A stretch of DNA of 29,676 nt, taken from a virus (lineage: Duplodnaviria; Heunggongvirae; Uroviricota; Caudoviricetes). The position numbers and the translations under genes were made by a program. The notes below the pieces were generated by a model, which saw only the letters and a program-made list of their open reading frames with translations, ran no database searches and was not told where the DNA came from. Below are positions 2,856 through 24,594 of the stretch, in pieces. Position 1 is the first letter of the stretch. The number at the start of each line of letters is the position of its first letter. Location: the IMG/VR virus record IMGVR_UViG_2660238507_000002, positions 1-29,676 of that record; one strand, given 5' to 3'.

Positions 2856-3074
2856 TCAAAGAGAGAGCGCCACCTGTCCTGATTTCATTGGATGCGGCTG
2901 AACCGGATTTGACTCTTTTGGCGTTGCAATCGAACGAACAAAAGTTTCATGGGTAACAAAAGTATGGCTGCAGTTAATGTTCTGGCACTGGTTGTAACGC
3001 TCTTTGGTCAATGAAGATACCTGAAAACTGCTGCGAGTATGGGCGGCACTTCCACACAGTGGGCAAATCATCAT
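2856..3074 (-). CDS. ogr: late gene transcriptional activator, Ogr/Delta/B family zinc finger
   Basis: 72-aa ORF with CPLC...C...C zinc-finger spacing and TKERYxQCQNxNC motif typical of P2 Ogr / 186 B; GGGGGAG RBS upstream. Confidence 0.9.
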   Translation of the reverse strand: MMICPLCGSAAHTRSSFQVSSLTKERYNQCQNINCSHTFVTHETFVRSIATPKESNPVQPHPMKSGQVALSL

Positions 3075-3165
3075 TTTTCGAGTTCTCCCCCATTTTTGCT
3101 AAATTCACAATAATGATACCGCATTATTCCATTTTGCAAACTTAAAAGTTCTCCATTGCGAAGAA

Positions 3166-4266
3166 TCATTCCATTTCGAAATCATCAATCCTCACTTCAA
3201 GCTCCAGACTGGTCGTAAAACCGTTATCCGGGCTGACGGTATGTGTCAGAGTCGTAATGGTCCATTCCGCATCATCTATCGGCTGTTTAAAACCACTGAC
3301 CTTCACAGGCATTTCCGTGTAGAGATCTGCCCGCCCTTCTGCCAGTTGTAGCGAAAATGACGCAACGCCGCGTTGCAGGCGTTCCCACTGCATTTTCGCC
3401 GCTCGTTCGGCGTTGCTCCGGTTGACATAAGTGCGATTAAGTACCAGCACGTTTTCATCCGTACCCACCAGGTAATCGCCCTGCTTCGCTTCCGGCTCTT
3501 TCTTCTGCTTCTTAGTCCTGCGCTTACGCTTCACCGTAGTGCTTTCTTTCTTCGCGGGTTCGCGGGTATGCAACCAGCTGGCAATTACGCCCGTATAGGC
3601 TCCGCGATCTGCCAGGGTAAAGCGGTGACTGTCGCCGTCCTTACGTGTGATAGTGATCACCGGCAGTGGTTTACCGCTGGCACTTTTACCCTGTCCCTGC
3701 CGGATGAATAACAGATTGCCATTTTTCACTGACGCAATAGCACCGTACTGGCGCGCCAGCCGCATCAGAAAACTGCCGTCACTCTCATTAGTCTGGTCTA
3801 TATGTTCCACGGGCTTATCCGACAGGTCTTTACCCAGTGCCATCTTCAGCTTGTGACGCGCAGCTATTTCCTTCACCACTTCCCCAACGGTGGTCTTGTG
3901 CCACGACTTTTCACGGCGGGTATTCAGCGTTTCCCGAAAATCAGCACTTCGCGCCCGGATAGTCAGGCGGTCCGGTGCGCCAGTGTGTTCAATCTCGTCC
4001 ACCGTGAATGCCCCTTTCGGGAAAAGCGGCTGCCCCTTCCAGCCCAGCGCCAGCGTAATGACCGCACCACGGCGCGGCAGCGCTATTTTTCCATCGGCGT
4101 CGTCCAGCTCCAGATCAAGCTGGTCCGCTTCAAAGCCCCGGTTATCCGTCAGCGTCAGCCTCATCAGGCGGTTATCCAGCACAGTGGTGATATCCCTGCC
4201 CTCAATACTGATGCTGAATGCGGGAGTTTTGTTGCCTTTGTTAAGCAGTTCAGAGCTGAAATTCAC
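3166..4266 (-). CDS. D: tail protein D (late control gene D)
   Basis: 366-aa ORF immediately upstream of ogr and overlapping U stop/start; position and composition match P2 gpD. Confidence 0.8.
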   Translation of the reverse strand: MNFSSELLNKGNKTPAFSISIEGRDITTVLDNRLMRLTLTDNRGFEADQLDLELDDADGKIALPRRGAVITLALGWKGQPLFPKGAFTVDEIEHTGAPDRLTIRARSADFRETLNTRREKSWHKTTVGEVVKEIAARHKLKMALGKDLSDKPVEHIDQTNESDGSFLMRLARQYGAIASVKNGNLLFIRQGQGKSASGKPLPVITITRKDGDSHRFTLADRGAYTGVIASWLHTREPAKKESTTVKRKRRTKKQKKEPEAKQGDYLVGTDENVLVLNRTYVNRSNAERAAKMQWERLQRGVASFSLQLAEGRADLYTEMPVKVSGFKQPIDDAEWTITTLTHTVSPDNGFTTSLELEVRIDDFEME

Positions 4267-17003: not shown

Positions 17004-18028
17004 TGGGAAAGAGTAAGAAGAACCGCGCTGTGTCGACGAACCAGATTCAGCATAAAAGCCAGACTTCAGCCGAAGCATTCAGCTTTGGCGATCCCGTTCC
17101 TGTTCTGGACCGCCGCGAACTGCTGGACTATGTGGAATGCGTACAGACAGATCGCTGGTATGAGCCGCCAGTGAGTTTTGACGGACTGGCGCGAACCTTC
17201 CGCGCTGCCGTGCATCACAGTTCACCAATTGCGGTGAAATGCAACATTCTGACCAGTACCTACATCCCTCACCCGCTTCTCAGCCAGCAGGCTTTTTCAC
17301 GTTTTGTGCAGGACTATCTGGTATTTGGTAACGCATACCTGGAGAAACGCACGAACCGGTTCGGTGAAGTTATCGCCCTTGAGCCTGCTCTGGCAAAATA
17401 CACCCGACGTGGGTTAGACCTGGATACCTACTGGTTTGTGCAATACGGCATGACAACCCAGCCGTATCAGTTCACGAAAGGCAGCATCTTTCATCTGATG
17501 GAACCCGATATCAACCAGGAGATCTACGGCCTGCCCGGTTATCTTTCTGCCATTCCGTCAGCCCTGCTCAACGAGTCCGCCACGCTGTTCCGACGCAAAT
17601 ATTATATTAATGGCAGCCATGCAGGATTCATAATGTACATGACCGATGCCGCTCAGAACCAGGAGGATGTGAACAACCTCCGCAACGCGATGAAAAGCGC
17701 CAAAGGGCCAGGCAACTTCCGCAACCTGTTTATGTACTCGCCTAACGGCAAAAAAGACGGGCTTCAGATCATCCCATTGTCAGAAGTCGCGGCGAAAGAT
17801 GAGTTTTTGAATATCAAAAATGTTAGTCGCGATGACATGATGGCGGCACACCGCGTGCCGCCGCAGATGATGGGGATTATGCCTAATAATGTTGGGGGAT
17901 TTGGGGATGTGGAGAAGGCAAGCAAAGTGTTTGTGCGGAATGAGTTAATGCCATTGCAAAAGAATTTTGAATCACTGAATAACTGGGCTGGAAAAGAAAT
18001 TATTTCATTTAATGACTACTGTTTTTAA
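17000..18028 (+). CDS. Q: portal (capsid vertex) protein Q
   Basis: 342-aa ORF overlapping P stop, as P2 gpQ. Confidence 0.85.
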   Translation: MMGKSKKNRAVSTNQIQHKSQTSAEAFSFGDPVPVLDRRELLDYVECVQTDRWYEPPVSFDGLARTFRAAVHHSSPIAVKCNILTSTYIPHPLLSQQAFSRFVQDYLVFGNAYLEKRTNRFGEVIALEPALAKYTRRGLDLDTYWFVQYGMTTQPYQFTKGSIFHLMEPDINQEIYGLPGYLSAIPSALLNESATLFRRKYYINGSHAGFIMYMTDAAQNQEDVNNLRNAMKSAKGPGNFRNLFMYSPNGKKDGLQIIPLSEVAAKDEFLNIKNVSRDDMMAAHRVPPQMMGIMPNNVGGFGDVEKASKVFVRNELMPLQKNFESLNNWAGKEIISFNDYCF

Positions 18029-18033
18029 GAAAA

Positions 18034-18057
18034 TGCGCATGGAAATTTTCATGCGCA
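18034..18057. terminator. palindromic hairpin between convergent Q and reverse transcriptase genes
   Basis: TGCGCATGGAAA / TTTTCATGCGCA near-perfect palindrome; on the minus strand it is followed by ATTTTCTT. Confidence 0.5.
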
Positions 18058-18063
18058 CACACG

Positions 18064-18993
18064 TTATTCTGATACTACAGGTTGATATCTCTGGATTTCA
18101 TCAATCAGCTCTGATGAATATTTCGCACAAAGCCTATTAATAAATAATGGCTCAACACTTTTGCAATACGATAAATATCCTTGAAGAAATAGCCTTTTCT
18201 TCTCATCAAGAGCCTCCCATTTAAAAATAAGCGATTTAACCATCCTTTTTTTATCTCTCCCTAAGGATACTCCACCATCTGTTGTCAAAGTCACACCCGT
18301 AACCATCATTTTATTTTTCTTTGACATATGCAGTGTCTTTTTTCTATTAATCCATAGTTTTGATGGGTATTTCAAATTTTTTAAATTCGAGCGTAAAAAA
18401 GGTGGTATTTGCTTCAATACATTTTCTTCGTTTGTTGAGAAGTACATATCATCAGCATAGCGTGTATATGTTATACCTTTTGAAAGACAAAATTCATTCA
18501 ATATATGATCTAATTCATAGCATATAGCATTGCTTACCACAGGGGAACTAACAGCACCCATAGTCAGTCTCCCGTTAAAGCATACTATTTTTACCAGCAA
18601 ATCAGTATCATCCTTTGACCAATCATCACTGAAGAAATGCTTGTTGTCGTTTATAAATCTCTCAACATCACTTTTCTTAATTGAATCAAAAAAACCTTCA
18701 AAGTCCATCTTAAGCATAAAACGTTTAGCTTTGTGAATGCTTGCATGTTTGAACACTGATGAACCCTGCTGATATGCTACAGCATTTGGATGAATCGGCA
18801 ATTTCGACAGAACATTATCATGAAGTAATCTCTGCAAAACTTTTAATTCTTTAGAGGGCTGATAGACGATTCTTGTCCCACCGCCTTTTTTAGGTACAGA
18901 AAATTTACCATAATGCGAGTTAGCATCATTTGCAACTTTTAATATAAAATCAGCTTCTAACAGTAAAACTTTAGCTAGATACTCAATTAACAT
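18064..18993 (-). CDS. retron-type reverse transcriptase
   Basis: 309-aa ORF with RT motifs: N-terminal FSVPKKGGGTRIVYQP, motif A KMDFEGFFDSI, motif B GAVSSPVVSNAICY, motif C YTRYADDMYF, and retron-typical VTGV downstream; AT-rich; ATG 1 nt after upstream gene stop. Confidence 0.85.
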   Translation of the reverse strand: MLIEYLAKVLLLEADFILKVANDANSHYGKFSVPKKGGGTRIVYQPSKELKVLQRLLHDNVLSKLPIHPNAVAYQQGSSVFKHASIHKAKRFMLKMDFEGFFDSIKKSDVERFINDNKHFFSDDWSKDDTDLLVKIVCFNGRLTMGAVSSPVVSNAICYELDHILNEFCLSKGITYTRYADDMYFSTNEENVLKQIPPFLRSNLKNLKYPSKLWINRKKTLHMSKKNKMMVTGVTLTTDGGVSLGRDKKRMVKSLIFKWEALDEKKRLFLQGYLSYCKSVEPLFINRLCAKYSSELIDEIQRYQPVVSE

Positions 18994-18994
18994 A

Positions 18995-20047
18995 TCACAT
19001 GATCCTTTCTAATTCTGCTTTGAATTTAGATATCATTATTAAATCGGATAATGATCTAGCTCTACTTCGTTGAATACTTTCAACTAAATCTTTCATCTTT
19101 TCATGATTAAAAAATTTAATATAATCGACACATGAATAATGGGTCACGCCCTCAAATCGACTTTCCTTAAAAATCCCAAGGGCAACTCCAATAGAAACAA
19201 CAAATGAAATATTTTTATTAATTTTATAATTTATCAACCTACCTGTGATATTAATAATCTCAGGAATTGTTATTGGACCTAAAGAAGATATAACAACGAG
19301 CACAAAAAATAAAAAAATTTTTGGTGAATATTTGTAATCACCTATTGAATTTGTATTAGTTATGTTTGATTGAACTTTCCTATTTAGCCTTTCATTTATT
19401 TTAGGCATACACGTTAAAATTGTCTCAAATTCAGTATAGATTGTAGGGCCAAATTTGGATTCACTATCAACCCATTTTACGGGCCCTGTATTGATAAATG
19501 ACTTATGACTTTCAAACTTTTTATCTAATATAGGAAGAAGTTTTTTACGTAAAACAGGACTTAATGAAAATGCGCCCAATTCAGCTACAGTGCCATAACT
19601 CTCTACGAGAATAATTACCACATCAGAAAAATCCGCAAGCCATTCTTCAAGTGATAGCGCATTCACATTACTATGAGTTCCTAAATTGCTAATTACTTCC
19701 CATGCTAATTCTGCTCGAAAAGTAACAAATTCTTTATGATGCTTAGCAATATATTTTTCCAGCATCCCTCTATTTGAACAATAAGTCTCATCTCCTCCAC
19801 AAATAAATAATACTTTTGGCAGGATATAATTAAAAGAATTCAAGTTACTTGGAAAAAAACTTGAAATAAAATTTTCTTTTGCTCGTAAATATCTAGGATG
19901 TTTAAACCACATAACAATTAATGCCCATACAAGAGTTCCCGAGACACAAGTTAGCCTGGTGTCTATAAATGACACAAGGCTAACTTGTGTCGAGATACCA
20001 AGCAATCCATACGAGTTGGCTAAACACCAACCACTAGAAAGTAACAT
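18995..20047 (-). CDS. retron effector candidate: NDT/SLOG-like domain followed by two predicted transmembrane helices
   Basis: ORF translationally coupled to RT; contains ..VVIILVESYGTVAELGAF.. (resembles nucleoside deoxyribosyltransferase-like Glu motif) and hydrophobic stretches KIFLFFVLVVISSLGPITIPEII and ISFVVSIGVALGIF. Start uncertain: first 46 codons overlap a strong hairpin and look non-protein-like, so true start may be ATG at 19912. Confidence 0.6.
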   Translation of the reverse strand: MLLSSGWCLANSYGLLGISTQVSLVSFIDTRLTCVSGTLVWALIVMWFKHPRYLRAKENFISSFFPSNLNSFNYILPKVLFICGGDETYCSNRGMLEKYIAKHHKEFVTFRAELAWEVISNLGTHSNVNALSLEEWLADFSDVVIILVESYGTVAELGAFSLSPVLRKKLLPILDKKFESHKSFINTGPVKWVDSESKFGPTIYTEFETILTCMPKINERLNRKVQSNITNTNSIGDYKYSPKIFLFFVLVVISSLGPITIPEIINITGRLINYKINKNISFVVSIGVALGIFKESRFEGVTHYSCVDYIKFFNHEKMKDLVESIQRSRARSLSDLIMISKFKAELERIM

Positions 20048-20110
20048 ATTGAATGTACTTTCCTGCTAAGGGCACAGCTAGGCTAGCACTAACATACGGA
20101 TTATTCAAGT
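19915..20110 (-). ncRNA. candidate retron msr-msd non-coding RNA (extent approximate)
   Basis: Position immediately upstream of effector-RT operon; contains very stable hairpin at 19941-19993 as expected for an msd stem; a1/a2 repeats and branching G not identified. Confidence 0.3.
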
Positions 20111-20129
20111 GAATGCAGCTCAGCGCGCG

Positions 20130-20148
20130 CTCGTATCCCCGCCACGCC
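20130..20148. other. candidate cos site (cohesive-end sequence)
   Basis: Minus-strand GGCGTGGCGGGGATACGAG resembles the P2 19-nt cohesive end GGCGAGGCGGGGAAAGCAC as I recall it (about 14/19 identical); GC-rich island between two AT-rich inserts. Confidence 0.3.
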
Positions 20149-20193
20149 TGCCCGCTTTATGTAGTAGTTTTCATGCAGGTGCATGATCTACGC

Positions 20194-20217
20194 AAAAGCC
20201 CGCCAGTTCTGGCGGGC
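20194..20217 (-). terminator. rho-independent terminator ending the upstream two-gene cassette
   Basis: GCCCGCC-agaact-GGCGGGC hairpin followed by TTTT on the minus strand. Confidence 0.7.
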
Positions 20218-20265
20218 CTTAGCAAAAACGATCCTCAAACGATCATGCGATCTCATGCAGCATAG

Positions 20266-21108
20266 TCATGCACGATCATTTGACTCAGCATCTGCTGCAC
20301 GCTTGCTGCGCGAAGATGCACTTTTACTACCAATCTTTCGACAGTTCTTTCTATCCCTGGCTTCATTTTCTTTAAATTTGTTATATGTCTCAGTATCAAA
20401 AAACGAAATTGTTTCAACCTCATCTTTTGGTATGAGCACACGGAAATCTTCGATATTAAGCCGAGACATTCCACTTATCACACCACTATCAAGATAATGT
20501 TGGTGATAGTTAGTCGTGATACTAATCGTTAGATCATCTTTATCCCGATATCCGCTTAACATCGGGAGAAGTTCAAGGTGTTCTGAAAGCCCGTTTTCTA
20601 ACGCCGGACAAGTAACAAGACCAACATAGATTTTGCGAGACGACAGAGTTGCTATGATCGGAAACTGTCTTGCGGACGCTTCCATGAGTAATGATTCGAA
20701 AGCGTTATTACCCACAGCTTTAGCTAAGGCATCCCAGCGACGATCTCCACGTGATGTGCGTAACTTATTTCCAAAACCTGAAATCGCAGCGAGAACAATT
20801 GAAATCATAACCCATGCTATCTGTTTGATTTCATTTATTCTTTGAAGTTTGTCTTTCGATGAAGACAACATGCCATTAAAACTGTCAGGTGTTAGATTCA
20901 AGGCATTAGCCAGCCAACGAAACCCTCCGCTGACGTTCAAAATAAAGGTGAAAAAACCGCCAAGGAGAAAAAAAACGATACCCCAGGCAGCCACAAAAAA
21001 ATAAGCGTCCCAGCCGTTGGAACGCTTATATCGGTATCTTGTTGAAAGTGATAGGTTTACATAAATAAAACCACTAACCAAAATCACTGCTAAAAGTAAT
21101 GTTGCCAT
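20266..21108 (-). CDS. hypothetical membrane protein (3 predicted N-terminal TM helices plus ~160-aa soluble C-terminal domain)
   Basis: 280-aa ORF, AT-rich, start overlaps upstream gene stop (TAATG); no recognisable family. Confidence 0.65.
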   Translation of the reverse strand: MATLLLAVILVSGFIYVNLSLSTRYRYKRSNGWDAYFFVAAWGIVFFLLGGFFTFILNVSGGFRWLANALNLTPDSFNGMLSSSKDKLQRINEIKQIAWVMISIVLAAISGFGNKLRTSRGDRRWDALAKAVGNNAFESLLMEASARQFPIIATLSSRKIYVGLVTCPALENGLSEHLELLPMLSGYRDKDDLTISITTNYHQHYLDSGVISGMSRLNIEDFRVLIPKDEVETISFFDTETYNKFKENEARDRKNCRKIGSKSASSRSKRAADAESNDRA

Positions 21109-21323
21109 TATCTGGTTCTATTAGTTTTCTCTTTTACAGTGCTCGTTTTGATGCCTTCAAGCTTATCCATCTGTGCCTTGATGGCATCCATTGCTCTTTT
21201 GTTAGACAAGTCTACGGACACAAAACCATCTTTACTAAGATTGAGTTTGTCCTGGTTCTCTTTAAGAACCCTTGCCAGACGTTCAACTGGGTTACCCAGG
21301 CTAAATGCGGCGATGCTTGACAT
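21108..21323 (-). CDS. hypothetical small soluble protein, first gene of two-gene cassette
   Basis: 71-aa ORF with strong RBS AAGGGGGAG 5 nt upstream of ATG; translationally coupled to the 280-aa gene. Confidence 0.6.
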   Translation of the reverse strand: MSSIAAFSLGNPVERLARVLKENQDKLNLSKDGFVSVDLSNKRAMDAIKAQMDKLEGIKTSTVKEKTNRTR

Positions 21324-21593
21324 AACTCCCCCTTTTCACATGGCGCGGAAGTCTACACTCCGACGCCTACAACCTCAACAGATTATCTTTAAAATTTAGA
21401 CAACAATATCATCTGTTGATTTCGTTACTTAAACTTAAGTTCAATGCGCTCGATCATGCAAGCGGTTTCTTAAGAACTGTTAATTTCCTGGCATATATAG
21501 TGGTTAAGATAACAAATTGACACTAACGCCTCGCATAGCTCGTTGTTCAACCTTGCTGACGCCAGAAGCAAGTTCAGACGCCAGCAACGTTTC

Positions 21594-21827
21594 TTAATGC
21601 AGCCAGCTGTCGTCTTCCCACACCTTCTGCATAATTTTCATCACTTGCTTCCTTTCTTCGTCCAGTTGCAGTCCGGTCAGTTCCACACCGTTAGAGCTAC
21701 CTTTACGGATACGAATTACCGTTTTGGGATATAGGGGGCGCAGATTGCGGTAAAGCTCGGATTCAAGGGCGTCCAGGGTAGACTGGCTAATCTTCTGCTC
21801 TTTATCGATCATTATTTCAATGCGCAT
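21594..21827 (-). CDS. DinI-like / Tum-like protein
   Basis: Translation from MRIEIMIDKEQ... resembles DinI (MRIEVTIAK..); own RBS GAGGGGA upstream of ATG at 21827; ORF-track start at 21899 judged an upstream artefact. Confidence 0.7.
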   Translation of the reverse strand: MRIEIMIDKEQKISQSTLDALESELYRNLRPLYPKTVIRIRKGSSNGVELTGLQLDEERKQVMKIMQKVWEDDSWLH

Positions 21828-21837
21828 AAAAGTCCCC

Positions 21838-22026
21838 TCAGCTGATGACATCCATTGAGCGGTTGTATTCGTGGCTTCTGATTTTTGCCATGAGTTCATC
21901 TGTCAGTTCAGAAACCCACTGCAGGGCCAACCCCTTCTCTTCATCACTACACTCACTAGCCGCTACAAGCTTAAGAAAAAAATCAATGCGTTGGAGCTTC
22001 AAAGACTCCCAAAAATAGTCCTGCAT
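21838..22026 (-). CDS. hypothetical small protein, first gene of LexA-box operon
   Basis: 62-aa ORF from ATG at 22026 preceded by AGGAGG; upstream part of ORF-track frame overlaps the LexA box and is probably non-coding. Confidence 0.5.
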   Translation of the reverse strand: MQDYFWESLKLQRIDFFLKLVAASECSDEEKGLALQWVSELTDELMAKIRSHEYNRSMDVIS

Positions 22027-22179: not shown

Positions 22180-24594
22180 TTAATACAGGTTCCGCCACTT
22201 ATCATCTTCCTGCAAACGCTGGTTCCGATAGAAGATACGCAGGCCTGCTCCTGACGGAATGCTGCCGCCGCGAAGGAGTAAATCGACCTCTTTCTCGCTG
22301 CCATCAAATCCTCTGGACTTCAGTTCATAGACGAGCTGCTGTCGTTGATGGTCTGTAATTCGCTGTTTGTAGTCTCTACGCCGTTTCGGTTTCACCAGGC
22401 GTAACCTTGCAGCCAGTTCCCGGCGCTCTTTTTTGTTCATACTGTGCAGGTAATCGTGCAACTCCTTGTCATCCATACGGGTGATATCCGTTCTGGTATC
22501 CCCATCAGCTGATTTGTCTTTCCCTTGTTGGTACAAATTTTCAGCAAGGGGACAGTTATTGCCACGAGTCCAAGGGGCGCAAGCGCCCTGGTCGGCTGCC
22601 GCCTCCTGAACGTCAACGGCTTTACGGACCATTTTCCACTTCACTGCATGAGTGCAGATCTTGCCCTCTGCAATGGGTGACCAGATGCCATAAATACGAA
22701 TACCGTGATCGCCATAGGCGGTCGGCTCTTCGTTGATTTCATAAGCGGTTCTGATGAGGTGATATTTACGGGGAACCAGTACGCCGCCCTGCTTCATGAT
22801 GTAGGTGGCAAAGCAACCAGCATCAGCTGCAGCCAGAATGGCATCAAGGCGCGGGTTATCCAGTACCGGCGCACCTGCTTTTTTGTCACCCTGTTGCCTT
22901 GCCGCCTGACCAGCCAGCAATCGCAGTTCACGGTAAGCCTGACGCCCCGGAATGCCAAAGAAGCGGAATTGCTGAACACGATGCAGAGACGCCCAGGCAT
23001 TAACGTATTCAGCGTTATCACGCAGAGATTTACCCGTTTCCTTGCTGATCTCGCCAGCCAGACCACGCCCGTCAATGTTCTTACTGATGTATTTCGCGAT
23101 GTAGCTTGTTGGTGTACCTTTGCGCGGGTTTATCAGCTCAGACTTAAAGCGTGGTCCTGTGTTATTACCCAGCTCCTCGCGGTCTTCACGAATGGCAAAC
23201 TTACGCAACAAAGCAGTAATGGCGCGGCGATCTTTTTTGCGCATAAAACACAACAGGTGCCAGTGAACTGTACCGTCATGATGCGGCTCAGCCACCCGCA
23301 CGCCATACCAGCGCAATCCGGCTTTGTACATCGCCTTACGAAATGCAGCAAACATGCCGACCAGATAATCACTGCTTTGTCTTACCGTCGCATTTGTCCA
23401 GTTCGGGTTGGGCCTGCCGTTATTTAGCGTGGAATGGAAACGTGACGGACAGGTGATGGTGTAGAAAACGGCGCAGTCACCGCGCATTTCCGCGATAAGC
23501 TCCAGACCTTTAACACATGCCATCATCTCATTGCGGCGATGCGCCGGGTTGCTACTACTGGCGTTTACCACGTCCTCCATATCCAGCGTGTCGCCGTCTT
23601 CGTTCACCAGTTCATGAGAACGGAAAAACTCCAGCGACTTACGGCGCTGCTCACGTTTATGCATCACGGCTTCATAGCTGACATAGGGAGATGCTTTTTT
23701 GCTGACCAGGCAAACAGCACGCAACTGCTCTTCCCGCCATTCGAAACGCATCTTCCATAATTTCCGATACCACCAGTCGGCGCACAACATACGCGCCAGC
23801 GAACCCGGAATGAGTTCATAGGGTACGGGTTTACGGCGGTTTCTTTTCCGGCGGAGTTGCTCAAACGCAGGAGGGATGACATCCAGACGCAGGGTTTCCG
23901 CCGCCACCCTTTCCCATGTCTTGCGGATTTCTTCTGGCTTAACGTCATCGGTGGCATACAAATCACCACAAGCTGCATCAAGGCACATGCTCATATGCGC
24001 GGCAACAAGGGTAGACAGGCGCTTCACCTGATCCTGACTCATTTCAGGCAAGATCAGCAGGCCGTCCAGCCCTTCATGGCTTGCCATAAAACGAAAAGAT
24101 GCAGATAGCTGGCTGTCGCGTACATGCTCTAGTCGTTCCAGACATGGTTTAATCGTCTCACGCAAATAGCGGGAATAAGCCTTTGGCCTGCCCAGGCTGC
24201 TGAAGTATTCAATACGTTGCATCAGCGGCTTGCTGATATGGGAAGGCTGGGCGTTAACGTCCGCCAGTATGACCATGTCCGGATTAAAACGCTGCTGCTC
24301 ATGCACCAGCTTTGCCCGGCTAATGAGCTTATCCTGCTCCATTTCGCGCTGGACAGGATCACGGGATTCATTAAAGAAATAACGCTCCCAGACCTGATCA
24401 CTCAGTGCCTCGCGGCGCAGTTGTTCCTGCTTGTTATCGGCAGCGTACAGAGTGATCAGGTTTGAAAGCGCAGAAACCGGCGCAACTTCCGCCGGGTCCA
24501 GATAAGGGTTAATCGCCTTTTTCGGGCTGTTCCATGAGAATGCTGCGGCGGCCTCGTTAAAGCCGCTGCAGTTGTTCATATCAGCATGTCTCAT
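22180..24594 (-). CDS. A: replication initiation protein A (rolling-circle endonuclease)
   Basis: 804-aa ORF at the position of P2/186 gene A; start overlaps dam stop. Confidence 0.8.

Follow-up and report, generated by a model that had tools for sequence, protein, structure and literature searches.

The effector of a type II-A retron is defined by an N-terminal NDT-like domain combined with a C-terminal DNA-binding domain (Mestre et al. 2020). In the same classification, reverse transcriptase (RT) clade 1 comprises types I-A and II-A1, which share the ncRNA type IA1/IIA1, and Sen2, Ec73 and Vc81 are members of subtype II-A1. In Retron-Sen2 and Retron-Eco9 the RT-msDNA complex serves as the antitoxin and RcaT as the toxin, and the gene order of Sen2, as given in one report (PMC11701397), is msr-msd, orf, ret. 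Retron-Eco1 (Ec86), a II-A3 system for which RT-msDNA-effector filaments have been solved (7v9x, 7xjg and 8qbk/l/m), hydrolyses NAD(P)+ and is triggered by a phage Dcm. The cos-proximal segment between gpA and gpQ of P2-like phages has been described as a defence hotspot (Rousset et al. 2022).

The window analysed here (the whole 29,676-nucleotide stretch of virus record IMGVR_UViG_2660238507_000002) contains a locus that we regard, with high confidence, as a complete retron of type II-A (St85/Sen2 family, and within it most likely II-A1), which a P2-like prophage carries between gene Q and cos as accessory cargo. Its parts form one minus-strand operon, in which a ~155-nt msr-msd RNA is followed by a 305-aa effector and a 309-aa RT (Table 1). 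The module is ordinary and already catalogued, and the novelty claimed for it in the initial annotation, which could place the effector in no named retron subtype, fails. The effector reaches 178 bits against the NCBIfam model of St85/STM3845 effectors (STM3845_fam, cutoff 100) and is covered by the precomputed entry PF28093 (‘STM3845’), while the local copy of Pfam returned no match for it. Both genes bear ‘retron St85 family’ names in RefSeq, the upstream one being a ‘retron St85 family effector’. A survey of the P2 hotspot lists the exact RT accession (Table S5A) and the exact effector sequence, the latter as a ‘Type II retron’ (Table S5B, system 152; Rousset et al. 2022). No study of this retron emerged from a full-text search with the RT accession and the name of the Klebsiella phage 4LV2017 (papers that mention the phage are, by title, strain genomics). 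The discovery value is small: this is a textbook retron in a P2-like cos-proximal defence hotspot, named in RefSeq and present in the hotspot survey.

Table 1. Features of the retron locus and its borders (positions in the window)
Feature	Position	Strand	Remarks
Terminator-like hairpin and T-run	18033..18058	-	9-pair stem with 5 GC pairs, TTTTCTTAAAA tail; 6 nt past RT stop
Retron RT, 309 aa	18064..18993	-	PKKGGGTR, YADD and VTG motifs; PADLOC, NCBIfam, Pfam and PDB matches
Effector (predicted toxin), 305 aa	18995..19912	-	Start MWFKHP; NDT-like N-glycosidase domain and C-terminal winged-helix domain
Spurious 45-codon N-terminal extension	19913..20047	-	Translated msr-msd region; its ATG (20047-20045) lies in the loop of msr SL1
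msr-msd ncRNA	19921..20075	-	Architecture kept in 16 related loci
a1	19930-19921	-	Part of msr-msd RNA
msd hairpin, 21-bp	19991-19943	-	21-nt arms 19943-19963 and 19971-19991
msr-msd linker	20013-19992	-	
msr SL2	20032-20014	-	GGTTGG/TGTTTAG/CCAACT; recovered by RNAalifold
msr SL1	20063-20036	-	Folds in 16/16 sequences
Branching G candidate	20066	-	Part of msr-msd RNA
a2	20075-20067	-	Part of msr-msd RNA
Candidate retron promoter	20080..20108	-	-35 TTGAAT 20108-20103; 17-nt spacer; TG-extended -10 TGC-TAGCCT 20088-20080
cos-like 19-mer GGCGTGGCGGGGATACGAG, then CGCGCGCTGAG	20130..20148	-	Phage backbone, not retron; upstream limit of cargo

The RT carries all three of the motifs that the initial annotation had taken as retron hallmarks (Table 1), and the searches place it among retron RTs. 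Its best PADLOC match is RT_II-A (4.4e-105), the second-best model is RT_I-A, and all 25 of the matches displayed are retron RT models; the NCBIfam model retron_St85_RT gives 326 bits (cutoff 235), Pfam RVT_1 matches the protein, and a search of the PDB returns retron RTs, the best down to 1.5e-54. An RT of another kind (DRT/UG, Abi-type or group II intron), merely lying beside an unrelated gene, would have a precedent in the Abi/UG-type RT known from the same P2 variable locus (Odegrip et al. 2006), and weak NCBIfam matches to Drt2, Drt4 and group II intron RT were indeed obtained. These, however, reach 16-39 bits against cutoffs of 300-450 (28 against 390 for Drt2, 16 against 450 for Drt4), in contrast to the St85 model. 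With a covarying, a1/a2-flanked msr-msd RNA directly upstream, and a neighbouring effector gene that in most related loci co-varies with the RT, the probability of a non-retron RT is negligible. The retron RT is nearer to those of Ec78 and Ec83 (type I-A; 1e-43 to 1e-50) than to that of Ec86 (4e-32), and thus fits clade 1 of Mestre et al. (2020). An RT of this clade near type I-A, in an operon ordered msr-msd, effector, RT, is what distinguishes II-A1, which, as judged by match strengths and gene order, is the most likely subtype.

The gene upstream of the RT, with which translational coupling had been proposed, does have its TGA stop a single base ahead of the RT start codon, but its listed start is wrong. 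To judge from its homologues, the effector begins at the conserved ATG at 19912 (305 aa), and not at the start of the annotated 350-aa ORF (18995-20047). The start motif MW..HP is found in 21 of the 21 displayed rows of a 41-homologue alignment, one of which has additional N-terminal residues ahead of it, and named homologues are mostly 305-327 aa long, although versions of 349-371 aa also occur. In one related locus (L084) the gene is called at the conserved ATG, again giving 305 aa, and a TAG lies in frame upstream of it (read by hand, for L084 alone). No obvious Shine-Dalgarno sequence precedes the ATG at 19912. The erroneous start masks the msr-msd RNA, and the same error probably recurs in automated annotation of the St85 effector family.

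The initial annotation had described the product of this gene as NDT/SLOG-like, with two transmembrane (TM) helices; the first part of that description stands, given the ESYGTVAELG motif and a best PADLOC match to NDT_II-A (1.2e-53), and the second does not. Had it stood, the locus might have represented a new retron subtype, whose effector is anchored by two TM helices and kills at the membrane. Such a reading could draw upon the Kyte-Doolittle hydropathy of 2.34 in one 19-residue window (annotated residues 244-262, IFLFFVLVVISSLGPITIP), as well as the ‘1 TM in protein 2’ assigned to this effector by Rousset et al. (2022). That segment alone, however, passes the Kyte-Doolittle threshold; it contains a conserved SLGPI turn followed by charged residues, and the second hydrophobic stretch, close to the beginning of the 350-aa ORF, comes from translation of the ncRNA. 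In an AlphaFold (AF2) model of the effector (pLDDT 86.6, and about 90-95 over the hydrophobic stretch), the stretch corresponds to helices 197-211 and 216-227, the first two of a helix-helix-helix-beta-beta winged-helix domain that follows a Rossmann-like N domain. A Foldseek search superposes the whole model on the soluble, msDNA-bound Retron-Eco1 effector (8qbl_E, probability 1.00, 283 columns), and partial matches were found to NDT, DNPH1 and CMP-N-glycosidase folds and to MarR and ArsR winged helices. The score above the curated STM3845 family cutoff likewise argues against a new subtype, and PADLOC models of type IV, whose effectors have two TM helices, gave no matches. A membrane-anchored effector is thus very improbable; as modelled, the hydrophobic stretch belongs to the C-terminal winged helix, and the protein shows the two-domain design by which type II-A effectors are defined. 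More generally, one hydrophobic helix within a winged-helix fold can be mistaken for a TM segment and give rise to a spurious ‘membrane effector’. The glutamate at the catalytic position, E111 (E156 in the 350-aa numbering), aligns with the position mutated in the E106A structure of the Ec86 effector (2e-17 between the two effectors), and the equivalent of Eco1 E106 is invariant among the displayed homologues.

The retron RNA was located at ~20075-19921 through comparison with 16 related loci, which span Enterobacterales to Acidobacteriota. The very stable hairpin that had been reported just upstream of the effector gene exists and is the msd, but it lies inside the first 45 codons of the listed ORF rather than upstream of it; its arms are 95% complementary, and the free energy of its DNA fold is -21.5 kcal/mol (z = -8.4). 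The flanking a2/a1 stem displays compensatory changes in 6 of its 9 pairs; 90% of cells pair, a share that falls to 26-56% when the strands are slid, and the covariation score was reached by none of 500 shuffles. The TAG that ends a2, and with it the G expected at the end of a2 in a retron, is invariant across the 16 loci. SL1 was missed by RNAalifold because it is misaligned in the MAFFT alignment of the msr, from which SL2 alone was recovered; folded one by one, all of the sequences form SL1 despite their differences. The core of the a2/a1 stem reads CCCUUAG...GUA(A/U)GGG, and we take the core of Ec86 (CCCUUAG...GUAAGGG) to be the same. Judged by its layout, the architecture is consistent with the IA1/IIA1 ncRNA type. 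Scanned with Rfam at E<=1, positions 17500-22000 gave no retron msr family, only two chance-level matches (mir-553 and a plastid UTR). With its branching G, stems and msd of ~70 nt mapped, the RNA makes this retron a II-A1 candidate for defence assays or recombineering. A GC-rich hairpin at 20192-20223 was also considered as the msd hairpin of the initial annotation and rejected, as it lies beyond cos in the phage backbone. The motif of that hairpin recurs in L084 and, in degraded form, in a second related locus (L081).

The surroundings of the module agree with its earlier placement between Q and cos, inside an AT-rich block: portal gene Q, on the opposite strand, has its stop at 18028, the cos-like 19-mer is read from 20148 to 20130, and GC content is 0.29-0.35 over 18001-20000, whereas the structural region of the phage has 0.49-0.61. 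By hand count, the 19-mer and the bases following it match P2 cosL (GGCGAGGCGGGGAAAGCAC-TGCGCGCTGAC) at 14 of 19 and 9 of 11 positions. Backbone homology resumes at ~20119 (the listed partial matches cover about 20116-20400), a gpA-like ORF occupies 22180-24594, and the far side of cos holds hypothetical ORFs (280 and 71 aa). The retron itself sits on the Q side, presumably opposite the position of P2’s own tin/old genes. The hairpin at 18033-18058 probably ends the retron operon ahead of Q. At the other end, a candidate promoter, weak by consensus, has its 3' end ~5-7 nt ahead of a2, and its layout recurs in L081 (TTGAGT-17-TGCTAGCCT) and L084 (TTGAGC-17-TGATATCTT); it is proposed solely from this conservation, and a scan with the strict sigma-70 consensus found no promoter upstream of a2, its counts across the region equalling those of shuffles. 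The RNA and candidate promoter together reach ~20108, close to the limit of 20110 first given for the module.

The content of this slot varies between phages, as in the P2 hotspot; in another P2-like prophage it holds a relative of the retron (62% and 80% identical for RT and effector, respectively). At least partial matches to the query occur in 1274 genomes. The retron is present in only 8 of the 5426 complete E. coli genomes, and blastn with the msr across the same set recovered those 8 and no others. Such rarity would suit a decaying or inactive remnant, no longer producing msDNA or providing defence, and so would a U.U mismatch in the a1:a2 stem (20069:19927), three pairs from the branching G at the priming site. 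Some copies are broken, since the effector region of strain A37 is annotated as two hypothetical proteins and the representative in Rousset et al. (2022) is truncated at residue 221. In the window, however, both ORFs are full length and align to the family ends, with all invariant residues kept, including YADD and the catalytic-position glutamate. The a1:a2 stem retains 8 other pairs, and its mismatch, absent from L084, is shared with an 87%-identical Enterobacter relative whose genes are intact. Nine E. coli records moreover share the module at 98.6% identity or more, and Klebsiella phage 4LV2017 has it at 97.9%. Decay of the window’s copy is accordingly unlikely, and we favour a complete retron.

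By analogy with the characterized Retron-Sen2, Eco9 and Eco1, the most likely role of this retron is abortive infection through a tripartite toxin-antitoxin system. The RT would prime from the 2'-OH of the branching G, beside the a1:a2 stem, and reverse-transcribe the msd into an msDNA roughly 70 nt long, most of it a 20-bp hairpin; the RT-msDNA complex would then bind the effector and hold it inactive, thereby serving as the antitoxin. Once an activity encoded by the phage had modified or degraded the msDNA, the effector would be released, and its glycosidase activity (NAD(P)+ hydrolysis in Eco1) would arrest the infected cell and so protect the lysogen population, and hence the prophage. The attribution of NADase activity to II-A1 effectors is an extrapolation from the II-A3 effector of Eco1. 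A functional departure from Sen2 and Eco1, through another N-glycosidase substrate or a trigger tuned to the competitors of P2-like phages (for instance, temperate phages or P4-type satellites), is conceivable, though we consider it rather doubtful. The conserved U.U next to the G used for priming could reduce the amount of msDNA, which might in turn lower the threshold of activation.

[quoted passage not shown] The Retron-Eco1 effector, ~22% identical, has a like fold over its full length and the same catalytic-position glutamate, whereas its RT (31% identical) belongs to clade 9 rather than clade 1. The representative RT of system 152 is presumably that of Ec86, which would place both retrons in the P2 hotspot. 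Like the occupants of that hotspot (Rousset et al. 2022; P2 tin/old), the module is AT-rich cargo beside cos, between gpA and gpQ. Identity with Retron-Eco9 (E. coli NILS-16) was rejected, since the rcaT start ATGAGTGATTCTGCATATGAATG (the annealing part of primer JB368) is absent from the window with 3 mismatches allowed; for Retron-Sen2 (St85, Salmonella Typhimurium), neither the 120 relatives listed for the RT nor the 120 listed for the effector include a Salmonella protein, which indirectly puts identity to Sen2 probably below about 40%. The window’s copy is phage-borne, and its msd sequence is unrelated to those of Sen2 and Eco9. With these two II-A1 retrons it nonetheless shares the NCBIfam families of both proteins, the operon order of msr-msd, effector and RT, the NDT-like and DNA-binding design of the effector and, as may be expected by analogy, the tripartite logic in which an RT-msDNA antitoxin restrains the toxin.

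A single operon on the minus strand of the P2-like prophage carries a retron reverse transcriptase (RT), a covarying msr-msd RNA that has its a1/a2 stem and the invariant G, and finally an Eco1-like effector in which a glutamate occupies the catalytic position (the features are collected in the table). The module is a genuine, intact type II-A retron, ordinary in kind and catalogued before, at a phage defence hotspot that is itself known. The initial annotation had recognized a retron within a prophage, and this part of its reading stands; its ‘unassignable membrane-anchored effector’ does not survive comparison with a structural model, the Eco1 fold and protein family cutoffs.

All three motifs cited as retron hallmarks are present in the RT, which scores 326 bits against the NCBIfam model retron_St85_RT (cutoff 235) and finds its top PADLOC match in RT_II-A (4.4e-105), followed by RT_I-A. 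The NCBIfam models for DRTs and group II introns yield 16-39 bits against cutoffs of 300-450. The closest sequences in the PDB are likewise retron RTs: 22et (1.5e-54, titled only ‘Retron’, with no specific name), Ec78 (9e-50), Ec83 (1e-43) and Ec86 (4e-32).

The TGA stop of the effector gene, directly upstream, lies one base ahead of the RT ATG. The claim that the effector could not be assigned to a named retron subtype is contradicted by its matches to PADLOC NDT_II-A (1.2e-53) and, above cutoff, to NCBIfam STM3845_fam (‘retron St85 family effector protein’; 178 bits, cutoff 100). The PDB also yields a match to the effector of Ec86 (2e-17), and the glutamate of its VAELGAF motif aligns with the residue that is alanine in the E106A inactive Eco1 effector.

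Two transmembrane helices had been predicted to anchor the effector in the membrane, a reading that we reject. A single 19-residue window exceeds a Kyte-Doolittle value of 1.6 (residues 244-262 of the annotated 350-aa ORF), and in an AlphaFold2 model built from 41 homologues (mean pLDDT 86.6, pTM 0.83) this hydrophobic stretch forms helices 197-211 and 216-227 of a winged-helix domain with the order helix-helix-helix-strand-strand. A Foldseek search of the PDB returned three significant matches, all to the Retron-Eco1 effector at near full length (best 8qbl_E, E 2.4e-11, probability 1.00, 283 columns), as well as partial matches of the N domain to DNPH1, nucleoside 2'-deoxyribosyltransferases and CMP N-glycosidase, and of the C domain to MarR/ArsR/ORC winged helices. 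Judged by the model, the membrane anchor behind the apparent unclassifiability of the protein does not exist.

The annotated effector ATG (20047) falls within the SL1 loop of the RNA. In a related locus from another P2-like prophage (L084), gene calling placed the effector start at the conserved ATG, giving 305 aa, and the frame upstream contains a TAG, while the MW..HP start motif is found in 21 of 21 displayed rows of the 41-homologue alignment (in one case behind a longer N-terminus); on these sequence grounds, codons 1-45 of the 350-aa ORF (19913-20047) are taken to be translated ncRNA. Because the effector is called 45 codons early, the msr-msd RNA is hidden beneath a coding sequence. The very stable hairpin of the initial annotation is indeed the msd stem; its place, however, is within the annotated effector ORF and not ahead of it. 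The early start, inside msr SL1, is used by PGAP, the 4LV2017 GenBank record and metagenome gene calls, and concerns both window positions 19913-20047 (minus strand) and positions 2950-3999 of an Enterobacter relative, L081; versions of 349-371 aa recur in close homologues, and named homologues are mostly 305-327 aa long.

Features of the retron module, with the RNA elements in order and the architecture that relatives share among the remarks
Feature	Position	Strand	Remarks
Candidate promoter	20108-20080	minus	TTGAAT-17-TGC-TAGCCT; conserved in two relatives only
a2	20075-20067	minus	pyrimidine-rich, invariant TAG at end
Candidate branching G	20066	minus	
SL1 hairpin	20063-20036	minus	sequence variable
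SL2 hairpin	20032-20014	minus	in relatives GGTTGG-TGTATAG-CCGACC, nearly invariant
Linker			conserved, with ATTGYT
msd long hairpin	19991-19943	minus	21-nt-arm inverted repeat 19943-19963 / 19971-19991; sequence and length vary among loci
a1	19930-19921	minus	begins GTA; complementary to a2
Conserved effector ATG	19912	minus	opens MWFKHP peptide; in relatives, ATG of MW(F/S)xHP peptide within 10-40 nt of a1
Annotated effector ORF	18995-20047	minus	350 aa; ESYGTVAELG
RT ORF	18064-18993	minus	309 aa; PKKGGGTR, YADD, VTG
Terminator-like hairpin	18058-18033	minus	closes operon just ahead of Q

For analysis of the RNA, 79 loci encoding RT relatives were fetched, most of them with an effector homologue immediately upstream of the RT, and for 17 loci the sequence preceding the conserved part of the effector gene was aligned; a common architecture is found in 16 of these and in two further relatives. 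In an 11-sequence alignment, six of the nine a2/a1 pairs show compensatory changes, 90% of cells pair (vs 26-56% with the partner slid) and the covariation score was reached by none of 500 shuffles. SL2 was recovered by RNAalifold, with UA-to-CG exchanges, and SL1 is a single hairpin in all 16 folded sequences despite their differences. The predicted msDNA region folds as DNA at -21.5 kcal/mol (z = -8.4); a length of ~70 nt is estimated from the termination geometry of Eco7 and Eco1. Rfam gave no match to this RNA.

Several details of this RNA deserve mention. A U.U mismatch (20069:19927), three pairs from the branching G, interrupts the a1:a2 stem; it is the sole unpaired cell of its column among the 11 sequences, is common to L081 (RT 87% identical) and is absent in L084. 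Each msd arm (19943-19991) is self-complementary (GACACAAG-TTAGC-CTTGTGTC), so that one 20-bp hairpin or two short hairpins are possible; in L084 the long stem is maintained via a compensatory T-to-G / A-to-C change. In many relatives the effector ATG is preceded at 8-15 nt by a Shine-Dalgarno-like a1, GTAAGGG (the window has a weaker GTATGGG, 19921-19930), and a1:a2 pairing could occlude it. In a Shewanella sp. locus (L008, on a contig with an N), effector, RT and an a1-like GTAAGGAC are retained; a search upstream revealed neither a2 nor SL1 and SL2, and unrelated sequence seems to have taken the place of this msr part.

The location between Q and cos is confirmed, with RT, effector, RNA and a cos-like sequence all in place, as is the AT-rich character of the block (GC 0.29-0.35 over 18001-20000, vs roughly 0.49-0.61 in phage structural genes). 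The candidate promoter fails a strict promoter scan. Minus-strand positions 20148-20130 read GGCGTGGCGGGGATACGAG, then CGCGCGCTGAG, and P2 cosL with its flank reads GGCGAGGCGGGGAAAGCAC-TGCGCGCTGAC; 14/19 and 9/11 bases match by manual count. In P2 the gap between cosL and the end of Q is about 170 nt, whereas here 2.1 kb of AT-rich DNA intervenes. Two hypothetical ORFs lie beyond cos, together with a DinI-like gene and that of the replication endonuclease gpA. These two ORFs (280 aa and 71 aa; 20266-21323, minus strand), the longer with several hydrophobic N-terminal segments, have no match in PADLOC, Pfam or NCBIfam, and occupy the side of cos that we take to be the tin/old position of P2. 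A GC-rich hairpin just past cos, in the backbone (20192-20223, GCCCGCCAG..CTGGCGGGC, then TTTTG), is outside the retron and resembles a terminator serving the 280-aa ORF; its motif recurs in L084 and is degraded in L081.

The module occurs in 8 of 5426 complete E. coli genomes, MS14386 being 100% identical to the window, and PGAP (RefSeq) labels both genes ‘retron St85 family’ there and in most of the seven other carriers. Some part of the query is matched in 1274 E. coli genomes, only 8 of which hold the retron; the partial matches listed span just ~20116-20400, covering the query end within the 280-aa ORF (to 20400), annotated ‘hypothetical protein’. The module recurs at 97.9% identity in Klebsiella phage 4LV2017 and in a dozen records of related Klebsiella prophages, and another P2-like prophage holds a relative in the same slot (RT 62%, effector 80% identity). 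The 87%-identical Enterobacter relative is chromosomal, with an ars operon on one side and a GIY-YIG gene on the other; since a degraded phage cos flank (GGCTTGGCGGAGATACTAG...) is kept upstream (about 2780-2880), its sequence suggests a remnant of a P2-like prophage.

The module thus occupies the hotspot that P2-like phages have near cos, between gpA and gpQ, and that was described by Rousset et al. 2022, whose Table S5A includes an arrangement with the window’s RT accession (WP_047090129) and whose Table S5B lists system 152 as ‘RVT_1 | Nuc_deoxyri_tr3’ (13 occurrences, ‘Type II retron’), with the remark ‘1 TM in protein 2’. Protein 2 is the window effector; it begins MWFKHP, and the representative copy stops at residue 221, before the winged-helix domain ends. 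In E. coli A37 (NZ_CP029327.1) the effector is annotated as two hypothetical proteins. By sequence, some E. coli effector copies (A37, the Table S5B representative) thus seem disrupted, which may reflect toxin inactivation. No experimental study of the window’s copy was found in the literature.

In the mechanism that we propose, the RT would prime at the 2'-OH of G20066, giving an msDNA dominated by the 20-bp hairpin, and the effector would be bound and neutralised by the RT-msDNA; in Sen2 and Eco9, the toxin RcaT is bound by the RT and antitoxin activity is enabled by msDNA. Methylation or degradation of the msDNA by phage activities would then free the effector, which in Eco1 goes on to hydrolyse NAD(P)+, and the resulting abortive infection would benefit the lysogen and its prophage.

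Identity with Retron-Eco9 itself was rejected, the rcaT-Eco9 start (primer JB368) being absent from the window. Mestre’s clade 1 comprises types I-A and II-A1 (Sen2, Vc81, Ec73), and Ec86 belongs to II-A3, clade 9. The module is filed provisionally as II-A1, because it shares with Sen2 (PMC11701397) the operon order msr-msd, orf, ret, and because its RT, only 31% identical to that of Ec86, is closer to the RTs of type I-A, fitting clade 1.
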